Under the pieces are notes generated by a model that saw only the letters and a program-made list of their open reading frames with translations, did not search any database and was not told the origin of the DNA. The position numbers were made by a program, and so were the translations under genes. From Hadesarchaea archaeon (lineage in GTDB: Archaea; Hadarchaeota; Hadarchaeia; Hadarchaeales; WYZ-LMO6), in assembly GCA_029259185.1 (NCBI GenBank), contig JAPDJF010000001.1:1-64000 (forward strand): a stretch of 64,000 bases of DNA, written 5' to 3'. Positions 29,008 through 63,696 of the stretch are shown one piece after another (within the stretch, counting starts at the first letter, position 1; each line of letters begins with the position of its first letter).

Positions 29008-29799
29008 ATGATGTCCAAGAAGAGGAGATGTGGGATAATCGCGGTTGGAAACGAAATCTTGCAAGGCTATGTTCGAGACTCGAATTCCTTTTGGCTTGCT
29101 AGGAGACTCAACAATTTAGGGTTCGATGTGGAGAGAATTTTCGTTGTCGGAGACGTGATAAACGATATAGTCGATGTCTTGGATTCAGCTTTGAGGCTAG
29201 GACTGGATTTGATATTCGTTTGTGGAGGAGTGGGCGGAACCCCGGATGATAGGACTGTGACCGCAGTGGCACAGGCCTTGGGTCTCGAGTTGGTAAGAGA
29301 CGAAACCGTCTTAGGGGAGATCCAGAAAAAAATAGAGCTTTTAAAGAAGAAGAATTTCGAGATAGAACTATCCAAGTGGATTCTGAAAATGGCGTATATC
29401 CCTAAAGGAAGCATTCCGTTGAAAAACAGCCTAGGTTTTGCTCCTGGAATAATGATCGAGCTTCAGGGAACGAAGATCTTCGTTCTCCCGGGAGTGCCTG
29501 TTGAGATGAAGACGGTTTTCGCTGAGGAAGTTGAGCCTAAACTAGGTTTCGGTGAGAGAAGGGTGATGCGGGAAGTCAAATTAGATTCTGAAGAAACTAA
29601 ATTCAGTGGGATCGTGGAAAGATTGGAGAAAAAGCATGAAGGCGTGACCATAGGCATGTATCCTCACTTCGGAAAAATGCAGGTGATAATTAGGATCATC
29701 GGAGACGAACGGGAAGTAAAAAATGTGGAAAGGGAGATAATCGAGAAAGCGAAAAGGCTTGGGGTAGGTTTTTCTTCGGTGACCGATGATTTCGAGTGA
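29008..29799 (+). CDS. CinA-like molybdopterin-binding domain protein
   Basis: IAVGNEILQG..DSN, GGVGGTPDD.T, APG, LPGVP.EM. Confidence 0.88.
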   Translation: MMSKKRRCGIIAVGNEILQGYVRDSNSFWLARRLNNLGFDVERIFVVGDVINDIVDVLDSALRLGLDLIFVCGGVGGTPDDRTVTAVAQALGLELVRDETVLGEIQKKIELLKKKNFEIELSKWILKMAYIPKGSIPLKNSLGFAPGIMIELQGTKIFVLPGVPVEMKTVFAEEVEPKLGFGERRVMREVKLDSEETKFSGIVERLEKKHEGVTIGMYPHFGKMQVIIRIIGDEREVKNVEREIIEKAKRLGVGFSSVTDDFE

Positions 29800-29983
29800 A
29801 CTACCCCTCCTCACGGAAGGAGCTTCTCCGACCGTGCCTTCGCAGCTTGGGGAACTCCAGCACGGAACCCCTTTACGGAGACCTCTGTCCCAGAGGCGTC
29901 CCCGACAAAGAAATATCACCAAAAGTGTGTATATGAATTGCGGGCTCTCATCCCCTCCCTTTCGAACTTCCCGTCCGCATCGG
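29796..29983 (-). mobile_element. IS200/IS605-derived non-autonomous mini element (tnpB-type right end retained)
   Basis: Minus strand ends GAAGCTCCTTCCGTGAGGAGGGGTAGTTCAC; other end GAAAGGGAGGGGATGAGAG resembles the end of the tnpB remnant at ~51630. Confidence 0.6.
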
Positions 29984-30796
29984 TTAAAAGGCGGGTTCAC
30001 ACTCGACTTCAAAAGCTTCGCAAATGGATTCGATGTTCGTGCAGATTTTCTTCCAGTACCCCGAACCACTTGCTAGGAGGGCTGGGATCTGTTCTTTCAT
30101 TCCGGGGTATTCTCGATCCAAGAAGGATCCAAGCCGGTGCAAGACCCACCTTCTCAAGTTCAGCTTGTCATATATGAGATAGCTATTCGTACTTTTAGCC
30201 ACTTCAACGATTTGCTTGAAGTTTTCTTGGCTGTCGTTTACTCCGGGAATGATTGGTCCGAGGAAGAGCCAGGTTCTCACCCCTGAGGAAGAGAATTCTT
30301 CAAGGATGCGAGCTCTAGCTTCGGGTGGGGAGGCATTTGGTTCCAGCTTCTCGGCTAACTTCCGGTTCATGGTTGTTATGGTCACTCCGACCTCGAATCC
30401 ATCAGGTTTGATCACATCCATATCGCGTAGGATCAGGCTGGACTTGGTCTGGATGCATACTGACAAGTTCCTAAACGACAGCAGTTCGATGCATTTGCGC
30501 GTGAGTTCGAATTTAGCCTCGGCCGGCTGGTATGGGTCACATGTAGTACCTAAGCCGACGACTCCGGCCGGTCTTCTCCTTAGTTCGGTCTCCAGTACTT
30601 CAGCGATGTTTTGTTTCACCTTAACGAGTTTCCCCCAGTTCAATCCCATCCATTCGTCGCGTAGGGTAGATGGGGAATAACAATACAGACAAGCATGTTC
30701 GCATCCGATGTACGGGTTGAGAGCATAACGTAGCCCTGGGAGCCTGCTCGGGGAGAGGGCTGACCTACACTTTATTATCGATATTTCTGCTCTCAT
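29984..30796 (-). CDS. Radical SAM protein, spore-photoproduct-lyase-like family
   Basis: NPYIGCEHACLYCY, DPYQPAE, QTKS..ILRD, GPIIPG. Confidence 0.88.
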   Translation of the reverse strand: MRAEISIIKCRSALSPSRLPGLRYALNPYIGCEHACLYCYSPSTLRDEWMGLNWGKLVKVKQNIAEVLETELRRRPAGVVGLGTTCDPYQPAEAKFELTRKCIELLSFRNLSVCIQTKSSLILRDMDVIKPDGFEVGVTITTMNRKLAEKLEPNASPPEARARILEEFSSSGVRTWLFLGPIIPGVNDSQENFKQIVEVAKSTNSYLIYDKLNLRRWVLHRLGSFLDREYPGMKEQIPALLASGSGYWKKICTNIESICEAFEVECEPAF

Positions 30797-37880: not shown

Positions 37881-38432
37881 ATGGGGGGGCGGAAAGGGAT
37901 CAAGAGAGTTTTCATCCCACTTGTGAAGAACGATTTTATCTATGAGGTACTTTCCTTCTTTCTTTGCATCGGTATCTTGTACTTTTCCCATCAGGGAATC
38001 CTGATGTTGGCCCTGGACTGCGATACCCCCCTCATGCCTGTCATCTCGAATAGCATGCAACACCACAGCGAGAGCTGGAAAGTACCATACGAGCAGATGG
38101 GTTATGACCCCTCCCAGTTTCCGTTTCAGGGGGGATTCGAGAGGGGCGATCTTCTTGTGATAAAGGGTGTAGATTCACCTAGTGAGATATCGGTCGGAGA
38201 TGTGGTGGTATACCAGCGAGTGCCGGGTACGATACCGGTGGTGCATAGGGTGCTATCGAAGTCAGAAGACGGACAGATCATCGTCCTGAAAGGGGATGCG
38301 AATTCGAGTCCGGATCCGAGCATATCTTTCGAGATGGTTAGGGGAAAGGTGATATTGGCAATCCCTAACCTCGGTTGGTTCTCTATATCAGTTTGGAAGT
38401 ACAGATGGCTTTGCACAAAAATTAGCCCCTGA
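37881..38432 (+). CDS. Signal peptidase I (Sec11-type); native stop replaced by element insertion
   Basis: VISNSM, GDLL, VVHRV, KGDAN..D, GKV; the reconstructed empty site ends WKYR-TGA. Confidence 0.88.
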   Translation: MGGRKGIKRVFIPLVKNDFIYEVLSFFLCIGILYFSHQGILMLALDCDTPLMPVISNSMQHHSESWKVPYEQMGYDPSQFPFQGGFERGDLLVIKGVDSPSEISVGDVVVYQRVPGTIPVVHRVLSKSEDGQIIVLKGDANSSPDPSISFEMVRGKVILAIPNLGWFSISVWKYRWLCTKISP

Positions 38433-39561
38433 GGCCAATTTCCGTGCTTGGGGGCTCGGAGTCCCCCTCAAGGGCCGAAAGCCCTACGGCCCCGTCCCTG
38501 AGCCAGTGGCCCAGGAACCTCTCTCCAATGTTTATGGCTCCGTTGAGGTCGGCGTTGTACTCGAGGCCACACGAGGGACATTTGAAGAAGCCTTGAGAGA
38601 CCCTTCGTCCTTCGTTTCCGCAGCGGTGGCACGTTCGGCTGGTGTACGCCTCGCCGGCGTGCACCACGGGGATCCCCTCCCAGAGAGCCTTGTACTCGAT
38701 GTACCTTGACAGCCGGTGGTGGGGCATCGAGTGCACGATGCGCCTGAACCTCCGCCCCTTTGCCCGCTTGCGGATTCCCTTCAGATCTCCTATCACGATA
38801 ACCGAGTTCCGCTCCTTAGCTTCGCTGACGATAGCCCTTGAGATCTTGTGGCACAGGTCGTCTATTCGCCGGCGCTCCGTTCTGCCTATCCGCTTGATCA
38901 CCCGCAGTAGCTTGCGCTCGCCGAGTCGCTTTCGGAGCCAAGCGTAGTGGCGCCTTATCCCCCTTGCTTCCTTCCCGTAGAGCTTGGGGGAGGTGATGTT
39001 GGCCTCCTTCTGCAGCGCCACAGACGCCGCGAGAAAGCGCTCCCCCAAGTCCACTGCGAGGACGCCGGAGGGACGCATCGGCTTGACCCTACGCTTGACC
39101 GTGAGGTGGAGGAAGAACCTCCCGTTGCGGTGGACGAGCTGTGAGTCGGAGATCTCAACCCTACCCGAGGAGAGAAGCTCCTCGTGGGAGCGCCACATCC
39201 GCAGCGGGCACCAGATGCGCCCGCCGGGGGTTGAAACGGATACGAAAAACCTGGCGAACCTGTTTCCGGTGTCGGTGAGCTTGAATGAGTCCTTATCGAT
39301 GAGGATGGGAGCCTTCCGCCTGTCCCCGGCCTTCCAAGCTAAAGCACGGCAGTAGTAGGAGGGCAACCTCGTTTGCTCTCTCAGAGTCCGGTAGTCCCTC
39401 TCAAGGGCCTGGGCGCGATCCCACTCGGCTTGGAGGTCCTCCAGAAGCTTGCGCTTGAACCGGGTGAGGCCGTAGAGTTCAGCCCTTATCGTCTTGGAGA
39501 CCAACATCGAACGTGGTCTGTCGGAACCATTTTAAGTTTTCCGGTATTTTTGTGCAAAGCG
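38407..39561 (-). mobile_element. TIR-bounded, transposase-less tnpB element (1155 bp)
   Basis: TIR GCTTTGCACAAAAAT at 38408-38422 and 39546-39560; direct repeat AGTACAGAT at 38398-38406 and 39562-39570. Confidence 0.9.
38422..39507 (-). CDS. tnpB: TnpB-family RNA-guided nuclease
   Basis: RuvC-I VLAVDLG, IVIGDL, EAYTSRTCHRC..CPSC zinc finger, RuvC-III NADLNGA. Confidence 0.93.
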   Translation of the reverse strand: MLVSKTIRAELYGLTRFKRKLLEDLQAEWDRAQALERDYRTLREQTRLPSYYCRALAWKAGDRRKAPILIDKDSFKLTDTGNRFARFFVSVSTPGGRIWCPLRMWRSHEELLSSGRVEISDSQLVHRNGRFFLHLTVKRRVKPMRPSGVLAVDLGERFLAASVALQKEANITSPKLYGKEARGIRRHYAWLRKRLGERKLLRVIKRIGRTERRRIDDLCHKISRAIVSEAKERNSVIVIGDLKGIRKRAKGRRFRRIVHSMPHHRLSRYIEYKALWEGIPVVHAGEAYTSRTCHRCGNEGRRVSQGFFKCPSCGLEYNADLNGAINIGERFLGHWLRDGAVGLSALEGDSEPPSTEIGLRG

Positions 39562-39619
39562 AGTACAGATGAAAGATTTATTGGTACCCAAGTGAGTAGA
39601 TTTAGCTTGGAGGCAGGCG

Positions 39620-49338: not shown

Positions 49339-49387
49339 AGCTTCACATAGTCTTCCACTCGTTCAAAATAAGTCTTTCAGAGACCTC

Positions 49388-49976
49388 TGCTTTGCACAAA
49401 AATACCGGAAAACTTAAAATGGTTCCGACAGACCACGTTCGATGTTGGCCTCCAAGACGATAAGAGCTGAACTCTACGGCCTCACCCGGTTCAAGCGCAA
49501 GCTTCTGGAGGACCTCCAAGCCGAGTGGGATCGCGCCCAAGCCCCTTGAGAGGCCGGACTCTGAGAGAGCAAACGAGGCTGCCCTCCTACTACTGCCGTG
49601 CTTTAGCCTGGAAGGCTGGCGATGGGCGGAAGGCTCCCATCCTCATCGATAAGGACTCATTCAAGCTCACCGACACCGGAAACAGTTCGCCAGGTTTTTC
49701 GTATCCGTTTCAACCCCCGGCGGGTGTACGCCGGCGAGGCATACACCAGCAAATGTGCCACTGGAAACGAAGGACGAAGGGTCTCTCAAGGCTTCTTCAA
49801 ATGCTCGTCGTGTGGGCTGGAGTACAACGCCGACCTCAACGGAGCCATAAATATTGGAGAGGGGTTCCTGGGCCACTGGCTCAGGGACGAAGGCGTGGGG
49901 CTTTCGGCCCTTAGGGGATCCCGAGCCCCCAAGCACGGAAATTGGCCTCAGGGGCTAATTTTTTTTGTGCAGAGCC
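49388..49976 (+). mobile_element. Internally deleted copy of the TIR-bounded tnpB element (589 bp)
   Basis: Near-identical ends to 38407-39561; direct repeat AGAGACCTC at 49379-49387 and 49977-49985; tnpB frameshifted and deleted. Confidence 0.9.
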
Positions 49977-49990
49977 AGAGACCTCTCAGG

Positions 49991-51538: not shown

Positions 51539-51615
51539 TTTCGATTATCGTCTGGGCTTAAAACTTCCCTCGCAAGGTTTTTGGTCCTCGGGTTGAAGTT
51601 TTAGGAACTTTTAAC

Positions 51616-52477
51616 TCCACCGCCGGGGAGTCCCCTTCCGCAAGGGGGGGAATGAGAGGTGGAACGATATATAGTTTGTAGTAATCTATTGCGATGACGA
51701 AATACATCATCACGGTTGAAGATAGGTTGGGGGGAGGAATTCAAGCGGACCATAACGAAGGACAAGACCATCAATGAAGCAATGGAGCTGATAAAGAAAA
51801 AAGTGGGGCAGGGGCGTGCTTAGCCACAGGTTCTGCTTGTATCCTTCAAAGACAGCCGAGCGCGCTCTGAATCGACACATGGCACTTTGCAGGTGGCTCT
51901 ACAACCGCCTGCTCTCGGAGCTGAACTTGGTGAGGGAGAAGGGAATGAGGCTGAGAGACACCCAAGCCTTGATCGTTGACCTGAAAAAGCACGAGAAGCC
52001 TGAACTCAACGAGGTGCACTCAAGAGTTTTACAGATGGTCAGCTCTGGTCGAACGTTCGTGCTCTTGCTTGGCTGAAGCGGAGCGGTAAAAAAATCGAGA
52101 AGTTGTGGTTCAAGGGAAGGGGCTGGTTCAAGACGCTGAACTACAACCAGTCGGGGTTCAAGCTTGAGAGCGGAAAGCTCGCCCTCTCGAAAATCGGGGA
52201 AATCCCCATCAAGCTCCACCGAAAGATTGAGGGAAAAGTGAAGGGGGTTATCTGTCAAGCGCGAACGCTAGGGCAAGTGGCACGCGATATTTCAGGTGGA
52301 GGGGGAATTGGAACCCCTGCCGAAGACGGGCAAGGCGGTCGGGATCGATGTCTGATCAAGCGCTTCCTGAGCCTCAAGAACCCGCGCTTCTACGAGCGAA
52401 CACTTGAACGGATAAGGGTGAGGCAAAAACAGTTGTCTAAGAAGCGGGAGGGTTCAGCCAACAGGAGAAAAGCTCGA
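51616..52477 (+). pseudogene. Degraded IS200/IS605 (IS1341-type) tnpB element with a frameshifted small upstream ORF (~51694)
   Basis: FCLYP..CRWLYN, YNQSGFKL..LSKIG.I.IKLHR, KNPRF..QKQLSKK.GS.NR.KAR in broken frames; end hairpin CCCCTTCCGCAAGGGGGG. Confidence 0.8.
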
Positions 52478-52500
52478 TCTTCTCAACTTTTTTGGGGAAG

Positions 52501-61622: not shown

Positions 61623-61975
61623 CACCGCAAGGAGACCCCATCCGAAAGGGCGGGGAGGGATTGTGACCATTGCCGGCAGGACTTTCGGGCGCGGTCACTC
61701 CACCGTGGGTGCTCACGGTAGCACCCCCGGCGGTTCGGATATACCGAGCCGCCTCAGTCAGGTTCCGACCAGCTTTGCGGCTTTCGCCCGATGCACTTCT
61801 ATTTCGGAGAGTTGACCGCCAAGCGCGTTTGACGCCTGCTGGGTGGCGTTCTCCGAAGCCCACGCCCCATACGAAAGAGGCGTGTTGATCTCCTTCGGAA
61901 CCTAACCGGCCATTGGTTTGTTGTTTCTCCGTAAATATACCGCCTCGCTAACCCCTCCCTTTCGGAAAGGGACTG
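61623..61975. mobile_element. Non-coding, highly structured cassette flanked by IS200/IS605-like hairpins
   Basis: End hairpins 61636-61655 and 61956-61972; at least six internal helices; no credible ORF. Confidence 0.55.
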
Positions 61976-63696
61976 CGTTCTGCATTGAGTTCACCTCCTT
62001 TTCGCCCGTGCTGGGTGCGGTACATCTGCATGATCTCTTCGATGGTGGTTGCCTCCTCGGGCCTGCGATCTTCCCTTATCCGAATGAACCTCGGGAACCT
62101 TAGCCCTACACCTCCAGTGTGCTTTTCGGGTGGACTCAGCTGGATTTCTTCAAACGCTACTTCAAAAATTACCTCGGGTTTGAAGTAAGCGTCGCACTCT
62201 ATTTCGATGTCCACCTCATCCGAGGGCTTCTCGAGCTTGATACGGTTAAAGAACTCAGTGAGTTCTTTTAGATCTTTGTCCGTGTATCCACTACCACATC
62301 GAGTAACAGTCTTATATCTCCCGGTTTTTTCATCTCTGGCTGCGAGTACATAGCTTCCGAAGGTTCCAGCCCTTTTTCCTTTTCCATAATGTGCTCCCAC
62401 GACCACAAGGTCGACCGTGTCTACTTCGGGCTTAAGTTTGAGCCAGAGAAACTCCCTCCTCCCAGCTCGATACGGAGATTCTAGATCTTTCGCAACGAGT
62501 CCCTCATGGCCGAGGCTGAGGGAGTGCTTTAGGAACTTCAGGATGTCTTCCTTCTTCCCGGTTACTATTTTTTCCACTATCATGACCTTGCCGGGAACGG
62601 ATGTAACGATCTGTTCGAGGATCTCTCTCCTCTCCTTGTAGGGCTTGTCGATAACACTTCTCCCCTCGACCATCAACACGTCGAATAGATATATCTCGAT
62701 CGGAATTTGTTCAGCGGCTTTCTCTATTCCATACTTCCTTCTTCGCTTTAGCACTTCTTGGAATGGCATGGGTTTCTGGCGATCTTTGTCCATTGCGACA
62801 AGTTCTCCGTCGACTATCACCCTTTTTGGATTCAGGGCCTTACGTATTGGATCCACGAGGTCTGGAAACATGGAGGTGTAGTCCTCCATCCTCCGAGTGA
62901 AGAGGGTGATCTTATCCTCGTTTTTGTGGGTCTGAATTCTTATCCCATCCAGCTTTATCTCGAAAGCCGCTTTTCCCCCCATTCGCTCTAGGATCTCGTC
63001 CACACTCTCCGCTCGTTGGGCTAGCATAGGACTCACGGGGTGTCCGAGAGTGACGCCTAGCTTCCTCAGAGTTCCCACCCCTTGCGCCGCCGCTTTCGCT
63101 ACGATCGCATAGTCGGTGGTGAGCATGTAGGCATGTTCTACGATTTCGGGGGGCAAGTTGAAGGTTGCCGCTATAGCGTCCCTCATTCTCCCCTCGGCCA
63201 CCCCTATCCTGAGATCCCCCAGCACGGTTCTAACGATGAACTTTGCCTCGATGGGGGTGGCGCTCGTCAGGAGTTCTGAAATGAGTGCGATCTTCCGGTC
63301 CACCGATCCCTCCCCTGTTACATCGGGGAGAGATTTCACTCTATCGAATACTTTTTCTACCGTGAGCGGTTCTGAAAAGAGAACGACCTGTTTCCTCCTT
63401 TCGGCTAGGAGCTTAGCGACCTCTCCCAGATCCCCGATACGGGCCATCAAGTTTTCTATCTCTTTTAGTGAGTGACCGGAGGCTGTGCTGATAGCCTTTT
63501 TCATTTGTTGGATTCCCACCCCAGTTTCCTTCGAGACATAAGTTGGCCACGGTCTTCCGAGGAGAAGGTAGACCACACGATCCATTTCTTCCACCGCCGT
63601 CCGTTTCAGGAGATCCACGATTATGGCATTTTTCTCCAAGTAACCCGATGCCTGCTCCAATTTCTCCAGTGCTTCGGCTAAAACTCTGTAGAGCAT
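61948..63696 (-). CDS. lig: ATP-dependent DNA ligase
   Basis: PMLAQ, EIKLDGIRIQ, VDGE, EGLVAK, WLKLK, LRFPRF..IREDR. Confidence 0.96.
   Translation of the reverse strand: MLYRVLAEALEKLEQASGYLEKNAIIVDLLKRTAVEEMDRVVYLLLGRPWPTYVSKETGVGIQQMKKAISTASGHSLKEIENLMARIGDLGEVAKLLAERRKQVVLFSEPLTVEKVFDRVKSLPDVTGEGSVDRKIALISELLTSATPIEAKFIVRTVLGDLRIGVAEGRMRDAIAATFNLPPEIVEHAYMLTTDYAIVAKAAAQGVGTLRKLGVTLGHPVSPMLAQRAESVDEILERMGGKAAFEIKLDGIRIQTHKNEDKITLFTRRMEDYTSMFPDLVDPIRKALNPKRVIVDGELVAMDKDRQKPMPFQEVLKRRRKYGIEKAAEQIPIEIYLFDVLMVEGRSVIDKPYKERREILEQIVTSVPGKVMIVEKIVTGKKEDILKFLKHSLSLGHEGLVAKDLESPYRAGRREFLWLKLKPEVDTVDLVVVGAHYGKGKRAGTFGSYVLAARDEKTGRYKTVTRCGSGYTDKDLKELTEFFNRIKLEKPSDEVDIEIECDAYFKPEVIFEVAFEEIQLSPPEKHTGGVGLRFPRFIRIREDRRPEEATTIEEIMQMYRTQHGRKGGELNAERSPFPKGRG

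Follow-up and report, generated by a model that had tools for sequence, protein, structure and literature searches.

The first 64,000 nucleotides of contig C1 (C1:1-64000; JAPDJF010000001.1), hereafter the window, belong to the genome of a Hadesarchaea archaeon (assembly GCA_029259185.1; 1.27 Mb, 54 contigs, 95% complete) and contain two related mobile elements bounded by terminal inverted repeats (TIRs) and with duplications of the target site (TSDs) on both sides. Element 1 is full-length, carries tnpB as its only gene and lies upstream of tfs (identified by a Pfam Zn_ribbon_TFIIS match), and element 2 is a shortened derivative upstream of nadE (NAD_synthase and CN_hydrolase matches). The members of this family sit in the same register and in a single orientation beside predicted host promoters, an arrangement that the first-pass annotation of the window had read from these two elements, and that was found at 17 of 19 left ends in the genome and recurs in two other archaeal genomes.

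Element anatomy

The 15-bp perfect TIR (GCTTTGCACAAAAAT) has four matches in the window, which correspond to both ends of both elements (0.05 matches are expected from shuffled sequences). Both insertions are flanked by a 9-bp TSD (in element orientation, element 1 has ATCTGTACT and element 2 has AGAGACCTC); on the left a single element base (C or T) separates the TSD from GCTTTG, and on the right a C follows CAAAGC in 17 of the 19 right ends found in the genome. By BLASTN, element 2 matches positions 1-341 (95%) and 896-1153 (88%) of element 1, as befits an internal deletion. The left flanks quoted in the first-pass annotation are present as given, i.e. AATAAATCTTTCA-tctgtactc-GCTTTGCAC at 39582..39546 (minus strand) and AATAAGTCTTTCA-gagacctct-GCTTTGCAC at 49367..49397, and its 9-nt spacer proved to be one base off the true TSD, the final A of the motif being the first base of both duplications. 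Read in element orientation, the predicted tfs promoter is ...AATAAATCTTTC, and its T-run abuts the TSD on the 5' side (Table 1). Within element 1, the BRE/TATA-like CCGGAAAACTTAAAATG (BRE, TFB recognition element) would be the promoter of tnpB itself, as its geometry agrees with the genome-wide position of the promoter motif described below. Furthermore, the gene upstream of element 1 (37881-38432) has lost its native TGA stop, which overlapped the tfs BRE, through the insertion, and its reading frame now continues for 8 extra codons into the right TIR.

Table 1. Coordinates of the two elements, their duplications and the adjacent predicted promoters in the window.
Feature	Position	Strand	Basis or remark
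Element 1, full-length, TnpB as sole gene	38407..39561	-	1153 bp TIR to TIR (38408-39560) plus one terminal base per side
tnpB, 361 aa	38422..39507	-	ORF; Pfam, NCBIfam
Element 1 left-end TIR, GCTTTGCACAAAAAT	39546..39560	-	TIR search
Element 1 right-end TIR	38408..38422	+	TIR search; fold; 18 right ends compared
Predicted omega-RNA scaffold, overlapping the tnpB 3' end	38407..38540	-	Fold
Putative tnpB promoter inside element 1, BRE/TATA-like CCGGAAAACTTAAAATG	39528..39544	-	21 nt before ATG; sequence and motif geometry
Element 1 left TSD copy, AGTACAGAT on the + strand	39562..39570	.	Identical 9-mer at 38398-38406
Element 1 right TSD copy, in the last codons of upstream gene 37881-38432	38398..38406	.	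Orthologous uninterrupted sites
Predicted host tfs promoter, GAAAG (BRE-like) + ATTTATTG (TATA-like)	39571..39583	+	36 nt before tfs ATG (39620)
Element 2, 587-bp internal-deletion derivative, no intact tnpB	49388..49976	+	TIR to TIR 49389-49975
Element 2 left TSD copy, AGAGACCTC	49379..49387	.	Identical 9-mer at 49977-49985
Element 2 right TSD copy	49977..49985	.	5 nt from guaA stop (guaA 49991-51538, minus strand)
Predicted host nadE promoter, GAAAG + ACTTATTT	49366..49378	-	~28 nt before nadE start (49338)

Register and orientation across the genome

BLASTN and TIR searches recovered ~20 copies related to element 1, comprising three full-length copies and many short ones (145-636 bp) that have the properties of MITEs (transposable elements of the miniature inverted-repeat type), i.e. 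they are non-coding, possess both ends of the longer element and are flanked by TSDs (element 2 is among them). Full-length copies and MITEs together provide ~19 left ends. An intact tnpB of this family occurs in element 1 only, the full-length copies on contigs C15 and C4 having a longest open reading frame (ORF) of 118 aa. Among 18 left/right pairs the TSD is exact (9/9) in 7, near-perfect in 2 (8/9 in one, a 1-nt indel in the other), weak (6/9) in 1 and absent in 6, one end being insecurely placed in the remaining 2. A DNA search of 40 relatives returned the element from its own genome only, besides weak tnpB similarity. Among the contigs of 4 DNA runs, breaks coincide with the element ends and none spans either element; an empty-site variant was not seen in them, which, for contigs, is no evidence of absence.

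Read outward from the 19 left ends, the sequence logo consists of one base (G in 15/19), nine uninformative bases, a base other than T, and the triplet A (17/19), A (17/19), A (14/19), followed by two free positions and a T/A-rich block. The dinucleotide AA at outward positions 11-12 is found in 17/19 left ends versus 3/19 right ends (binomial P for at least 17/19 ~4e-17, given an intergenic AA frequency of 0.081). The exact core VAAA is present at 14 of the 19 left ends (among the exceptions, the left ends on contigs C6 and C33 are off by one base), and an A/T block (at least 6/8 A/T) follows 12 of these 14 sites as compared to 25% of 5011 intergenic VAAA sites (P = 3.5e-6). In element orientation this corresponds to TTTB at the position of a predicted target-adjacent motif (TAM) in 14-17 of 19 sites.

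The further genomic copies thus keep the motif at the offset at which the first-pass annotation had placed it. The shared flank that it had described is real well beyond two copies as far as this core is concerned, and the full 13-mer (AATAARTCTTTCA) is common to the two window sites only: allowing up to one mismatch it occurs at two places in the window, both of them insertion flanks, and on its own it is weakly significant (at least 2 matches in 3/100 shuffles). Likewise, neither TCTTTC nor the 13-mer emerged as the target; what is conserved is TTTB directly 5' of the 9-bp TSD, together with the A/T-rich block. Restricted space does not by itself account for the register, since more than 100 nt of non-coding DNA lie upstream at 2 of 9 TSD-verified sites; at 3 of the 9 the 3' end of a called gene overlaps the TSD or its flank.

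A predicted host promoter at the insertion edge

The flanking motif is a predicted host promoter and is built like those of archaea, in which a purine-rich BRE stands directly upstream of an A/T-rich box, ~25 nt before the start of the transcript. A weight matrix built from the insertion sites has 2811 matches scoring at least 8 bits, and 17%, 24% and 35% of the matches (at 8, 10 and 12 bits, respectively) precede, in the right orientation, a called gene start by 1-100 nt, with a peak at 20-30 nt; random positions do so in 5.7% of cases, which amounts to a 3-6 fold enrichment. The gene starts were taken from a greedy gene call, as a test of mere ORF proximity was uninformative (44% of random positions passed it). 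Moreover, an independent motif search in 439 upstream regions yielded an AAA-N2-T-rich motif. The tfs orthologue has the same upstream gene and no element in 5/5 sister-genus genomes, where a sequence of the type GAAAGC(T)TTATTTGAA stands directly after the stop codon of that upstream gene. The retention of the promoter in all five relatives that lack the element demonstrates that the BRE/TATA-like motif is native to the host, as the first-pass annotation had supposed.

TnpB and the predicted omega-RNA

The product of tnpB in element 1 has the features of a canonical TnpB. It matches Pfam Cas12f1-like_TNB (PF07282, a zinc-ribbon domain, 82 bits) and OrfB_IS605, and scores 170 bits on the NCBIfam model guided_TnpB (cut-off 100); its RuvC-like catalytic residues D153, E286 and D320, as well as four Cys, are invariant in 24 homologues. 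Searches in archaea gave 712 homologues at E <= 1e-10, the closest being 75% identical and the closest named relative belonging to a Hadesarchaea metagenome-assembled genome (MAG). The genome additionally encodes several further, diverged tnpB families (C2:61716-62917, C5:15457-16464, C29:6396-7322 and C13:17130-18557).

The last ~130 nt of element 1 are predicted to fold with a minimum free energy of -79.1 kcal/mol (z = -3.12 versus 200 shuffles) and to end in a 16-bp hairpin (~38413-38447), the 3' half of which is the right TIR, followed by AAAGCC. When right ends of four element families (18 in all) were aligned, pairing could be traced by eye in both the terminal hairpin and the first stem in spite of their differing sequences (GCAC...GUGC, CUUCGGA...UCCGAAG and GUAGAA...UUCUAC); with RNAalifold, the first stem was the only one to be recovered completely. 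Every right end finishes in ARAGCN. An Rfam search over the element gave no match.

As the right TIR would form the last hairpin of the omega-RNA, the predicted guide would consist of the right-hand TSD copy and its flank; in TnpBs that have been studied the guide begins after the tip of the scaffold. With such a guide, the T-run comes to lie exactly at the TAM position in the empty site, and the bases directly 5' of the guide match there are TTTB in the present family and TTT in that of a second Hadarchaeal genome. We infer from this arrangement that the T-run would act as the TAM, that the guide would start at the TSD and that TnpB would promote homing. The occupied left junction retains the T-run and 9 nt of guide match, and work on ISDra2 reportedly places a match of 9 nt below what TnpB needs for cutting, so that this junction is probably not cut.

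Related elements in other genomes

Several of 80 tnpB loci from named genomes possess TIRs, a 9-bp TSD and a left flank with a T-run or TATA-like sequence. The second Hadarchaeal genome encodes a TnpB 62% identical to that of element 1, within elements bounded by the TIR GGTTCTCTTCGGAAC (one full copy and five MITEs); in its six pairs of ends the TSD is exact in 4/6 and 8/9 in one, AAA directly follows the TSD in 4/6, and ORF starts lie 42-53 nt out in 4/6. The two Hadarchaeal families consequently have registers that lie one base apart (TSD|V|AAA versus TSD|AAA). In the complete genome of the Micrarchaeal Ca. Fermentimicrarchaeum limneticum (TIR GCTTTGCACATAAAT), VAAA stands in register at 4/7 left ends and is shifted by one base at one more. 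Single loci in a Woesearchaeote and two other archaea have a similar appearance.

In an inverted-repeat scan of 35 tnpB loci many had no TIR at the level of a 12-mer with up to one mismatch, although some of these carry diverged TIRs. Other scanned loci are of IS605 type, with Y1 TnpA and a likely TTAAC target, which means that the TAM cannot be transferred by homology. A degenerate TIR pattern gave mostly chance matches in three A/T-rich genomes, as did most 2-mismatch matches across the order, and only hits with element-like inner sequence were used.

Candidate transposases

The window elements are probably non-autonomous members of an IS5-like TIR family, as judged from elements in other genomes that share their type of ends and encode a DDE protein. 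In Ca. Fermentimicrarchaeum limneticum a 6.8-kb transposon (L127; CP058998.1:584501-591341) has the same TIR as the local TnpB elements, the TSD CGATAGAAC and the left flank GGTTTTT, and encodes at its right end a 343-aa IS5-like DDE_Tnp_1 protein. Its cargo is defence-like (N6/N4 and D12 DNA methyltransferases, a MORC-like GHKL ATPase and a Panacea-domain protein). Hadarchaeal elements of 1.4-1.5 kb with the TIR GGGCTTGGGACAAAAAT and the TSDs GGATAATTC (L177) and ACGGAAATC (L180) encode a 355-aa DDE protein, which occurs in 14/65 genomes of the order and in 0/6 of the family to which our genome belongs (that genome being counted). Furthermore, the exact TIR GGCTTTGCACAAAAAT opens larger DDE-bearing transposons in two further genomes (L229, with a DDE protein of 403 aa, and L230, with one of 413 aa); the right ends of these transposons, with a TSD, were not located. 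Five DDE proteins were compared with NCBIfam and all had NF033579 (IS5 family) as their best match, four at 87-124 bits and one at 148.5 bits against a cut-off of 140. A search of a plasmid collection returned no relative of the DDE protein.

PF01609 matches in the Hadesarchaea genome are limited to one IS1182-like and one IS1634/IS4-like gene, and tblastn with the Y1 domain from the neighbour of a homologue detected no Y1 TnpA there. An IS607-type serine recombinase TnpA (Resolvase and HTH_17) is encoded at C5:51424-52026 (L024), outside the element, and a second ORF with HTH_17/MerR only at C5:11809-12426 (L028). An IS1182-family transposase is encoded on the 1358-bp contig C51 (64.5% G+C). 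Over 1350 bp this contig shares 94% identity with one from another Hadarchaeal MAG (G045:C19, L173), and it may represent either a mobile element common to both or contamination from binning.

Short direct repeats were also observed. Three tandem TGTTTAAAAAGT(S)CC copies (L229 640-713, G060:C16) adjoin a DDE-bearing transposon immediately beyond its left TIR, and three direct repeats TTGCACAyAAAt, which resemble the TIR core of the window element, lie upstream of a thermosome gene at C26:6505-6560; in other genomes, the subterminal left end of DDE-bearing transposons consists of comparable 3-4-fold repeats (L127 501-580 and L231 546-610).

Other features of the window and genome

Three other repeat families in the window are unrelated to the TnpB-TIR element, namely those at 51607-52479 (~10 or more genome copies; it adjoins the guaA start, just upstream), 29779-29988 (10 or more) and 61667-61993 (4). 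The near-identical contig ends C13:50-979 (L026) and C38:1-985 encode the C-terminal domain of methyl-coenzyme M reductase alpha, which indicates that the organism has an enzyme of this type.

Interpretation

We read the family as a transposon of the cut-and-paste type, with TnpB and its predicted omega-RNA as the only gene set, which would most likely be moved in trans by an IS5-like DDE transposase. A staggered cut would put its left end 9 bp plus one element base downstream of TTTB, i.e. of the complement of the promoter's BRE core (VAAA), which the TATA box follows at once; the host promoter would be left intact, directed away from the element and back to back with the putative tnpB promoter. 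The T-run, as a 5' TAM, would then let TnpB recognise an unoccupied copy of the same site. Target choice and TAM would thereby be matched, as are the TnpA target and TAM in IS200/IS605, with the TAM located here outside the variable TSD. That the transposase itself reads the T-run and the A/T block, and that these coincide with the TAM of TnpB, is a reading for which we see the chances as evenly balanced. The MITEs count in its favour, as they follow the register rule.

Several observations weigh against it. No IS5-like DDE transposase was found in the 95% complete genome by PF01609, NF033579, tblastn or protein search, and mobilisation in trans is suggested by the other genomes; in the second Hadarchaeal genome the TnpB elements differ in TIR from the DDE element present there. 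The motif is absent at 2/19 left ends (C23:20793 and C3:5798 as scored), and at C11:22758 and C3:5798 it is displaced by 7-8 nt by a short tandem duplication, with no TSD. Three MITEs (C13:32182, C14:36950 and C23:8810) carry, outside the left TIR and with no TSD, an identical stretch of ~21 nt (one base, 9 nt, a BRE-like sequence and the T-run) with a 16-mer that is unique to them in the genome, and as they share this flank they do not represent independent events. Moreover, the copies diverge by 9-10% and two of the three full copies are broken, for which reason the family may no longer be active here. Lastly, elements without TnpB but with related TIRs have A/T-rich flanks with the T-run in exact register at only 2/10 ends, on either end, and given this looser register the transposase alone may not set it.

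The last observation would find its place in a scheme in which insertion into A/T-rich, accessible DNA is loose in register and in either orientation, with TnpB homing spreading through the chromosome copies, and so keeping, the insertions that have a TAM directly 5' of the TSD, and purifying selection in a 90% coding genome removing the rest. The pattern is indeed sharp in the families that bear TnpB and an omega-RNA, the coding fraction of the genome is 0.905, and in the TnpB-less L180 the TSD is directly adjoined, at the right-end side, by GGAAAAC-TTTTAAG. The same register is, however, kept by MITEs without tnpB, some of which retain ~75-90 nt of the right end, and the comparison with TnpB-less elements is uncontrolled (the families may use different transposases) and small (10 ends). 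This scheme would also depend on polyploidy and homing, both hypothetical in this organism. We regard it as unlikely.

A role for the promoter complex itself, anticipated in the first-pass annotation by analogy to Ty3, would mean that BRE-bound TFB and TATA-bound TBP, or the DNA bend that they produce, position the transpososome at the upstream edge of the TFB footprint (cf. Ty3 and TFIIIB). The sites are, on the evidence of the A/T block (12/14 versus 25%) and of host genes that start at promoter distance, true promoters and not arbitrary T-runs; the register holds a constant position with respect to the BRE, the directional element of archaeal promoters, and the pattern occurs in three archaeal genomes from distant lineages with differing element sequences. 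On the other hand, the information content of AAA is higher at the insertion sites (1.35, 1.28 and 0.76 bits) than it is for promoters in general (0.86, 0.31 and 0.69 bits, from a motif derived with a crude greedy gene caller and a noisy alignment), and the T's of the TATA box are less conserved; these values suggest that the T-run is what is selected directly, and fit its direct reading better. The one-base difference in register between the two Hadarchaeal families also counts against such positioning, as does Ty3 itself, which is not known to be orientation-specific, and we hold positioning by TFB and TBP to be quite unlikely.

It is very improbable, in our opinion, that TnpB takes part in the insertion, be it that its TAM scanning places a partner transposase or that it acts as the transposase. 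In favour of such a role, TnpB is the sole product of these elements in several archaeal lineages, the TIR is always the 3' end of the predicted omega-RNA and changes along with it, the T-run is where TnpB is predicted to bind, and the cognate DDE protein was not found in the genome. Similar TIRs and 9-bp TSDs nevertheless bound DDE elements that have no tnpB, and TnpB is known to cut at a distance of 15-21 nt from the TAM and not at positions 0 and +9. TnpB is also described as dispensable for transposition in the families treated in the relevant passages of a 2026 review (PMC13565253).

There is next to no chance that the motif is borne by the element or reflects an accidental resemblance of two promoters, as might be thought from the 21-nt stretch of the three MITEs and the weak 13-mer statistic, since the flanks differ between copies outside the short core, the TSDs separate TIR from motif, 5/5 relatives have the tfs promoter but no element, and the core has P ~4e-17.

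Returning to the matched target and TAM, we tentatively extend this reading, with rather more doubt than confidence, to the suggestion that an archaeal family of DDE-type TIR transposons has tied its choice of insertion site to the TAM that its passenger TnpB would recognise; the BRE complement (TTTB) would serve as TAM, the 9-bp TSD as guide seed and the right TIR as last hairpin. Promoters might then act both as safe harbours and as recognition sites for homing, and TnpB scanning, or the 9-nt match at the junction, might compete with TFB.

Comparison with known systems

TnpB, IS5-like TIR elements, MITEs and archaeal promoters are already known, and TnpBs bounded by TIRs have been published. 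According to the relevant passages of PMC4810608, PMC13565253 and PMC6188088, TIRs and TSDs are both absent from IS200/IS605 and IS607 elements, and the window element is therefore not a standard IS1341-type element. It shares with the IS1341 group of IS200/IS605 the presence of tnpB as sole gene, a predicted omega-RNA at the right end and a short conserved motif 5' of the left end at the TAM position, and TnpB homologues at 37-48% identity adjoin Y1 TnpA; it differs from IS200/IS605 in its 15-bp TIRs and 9-bp TSD, in that tblastn detected no Y1 TnpA in its genome and in that the TSD separates the TAM-like motif from the left end. Unlike IS607, the window elements have a TIR and TSD and contain no serine recombinase TnpA.

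Altae-Tran et al. 2023 (PMC10691335) report, in the sections on TnpB, six DDE-associated branches with inverted terminal repeats, as well as solo TnpBs with the same ends. As in those branches, TnpB lies here inside inverted terminal repeats and within 250 bp of an end. The transposon families mentioned are IS630 in that paper and ISL2, IS630 and IS1031 in the corresponding part of the 2026 review (PMC13565253), and the 9-bp TSD, the promoter-edge target and the geometry with the TAM outside the TSD are not described in the passages of PMC10691335 considered here. With the IS5 family our elements are linked through the DDE proteins tied to these TIRs, which score best on NF033579. They may also resemble IS903-type elements, which reportedly (ISfinder) have GGC-type termini and a 9-bp duplication (the literature on IS5 subgroups gave nothing usable on this point). 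IS903 prefers palindromic targets, unlike the window family with its asymmetric target motif, fixed orientation and no transposase of its own.

A TnpB relative in a transposon with TIRs and TSDs, and with the TAM tied to the target site, is likewise represented by Fanzor in eukaryotic DDE transposons, as outlined in PMC13565253. There, in the passages concerned, a short TSD (TA or TTAA) is part of the TAM and the 3' TSD belongs to the scaffold, whereas here the TSD comprises 9 variable bases inside the predicted guide and the TAM-like motif lies outside. With Ty3, which reaches Pol III promoters via TFIIIB, the family has in common an insertion at a fixed distance from a promoter complex of TBP/TFB type; Ty3 differs in being a retroelement with an integrase for which the contact has been demonstrated, while in the present case the contact is hypothetical and the orientation fixed.

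Full-text literature searches, outside which lay the supplements of PMC10691335 that possibly list the branch and its ends, found no report of insertion in a single-base register and fixed orientation at the upstream BRE/TATA edge, of a TAM-position motif outside a variable 9-bp TSD, or of a right TIR that would at the same time be the last hairpin of an omega-RNA. We consider that the pattern may be used as a promoter marker in uncultured archaea, and that the compact TnpB of this hydrothermal-vent archaeon, with 361 aa and a predicted TTTB TAM, is a candidate for tool development. The question of how an RNA-guided homing nuclease fares inside a cut-and-paste element with a TSD is raised in the 2026 review, in the part that deals with it (PMC13565253). 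TnpB is understood in scarless elements that have no TSD (IS200/IS605 and IS607), and the window family suggests a concrete solution by which it could operate in an element with a variable TSD.

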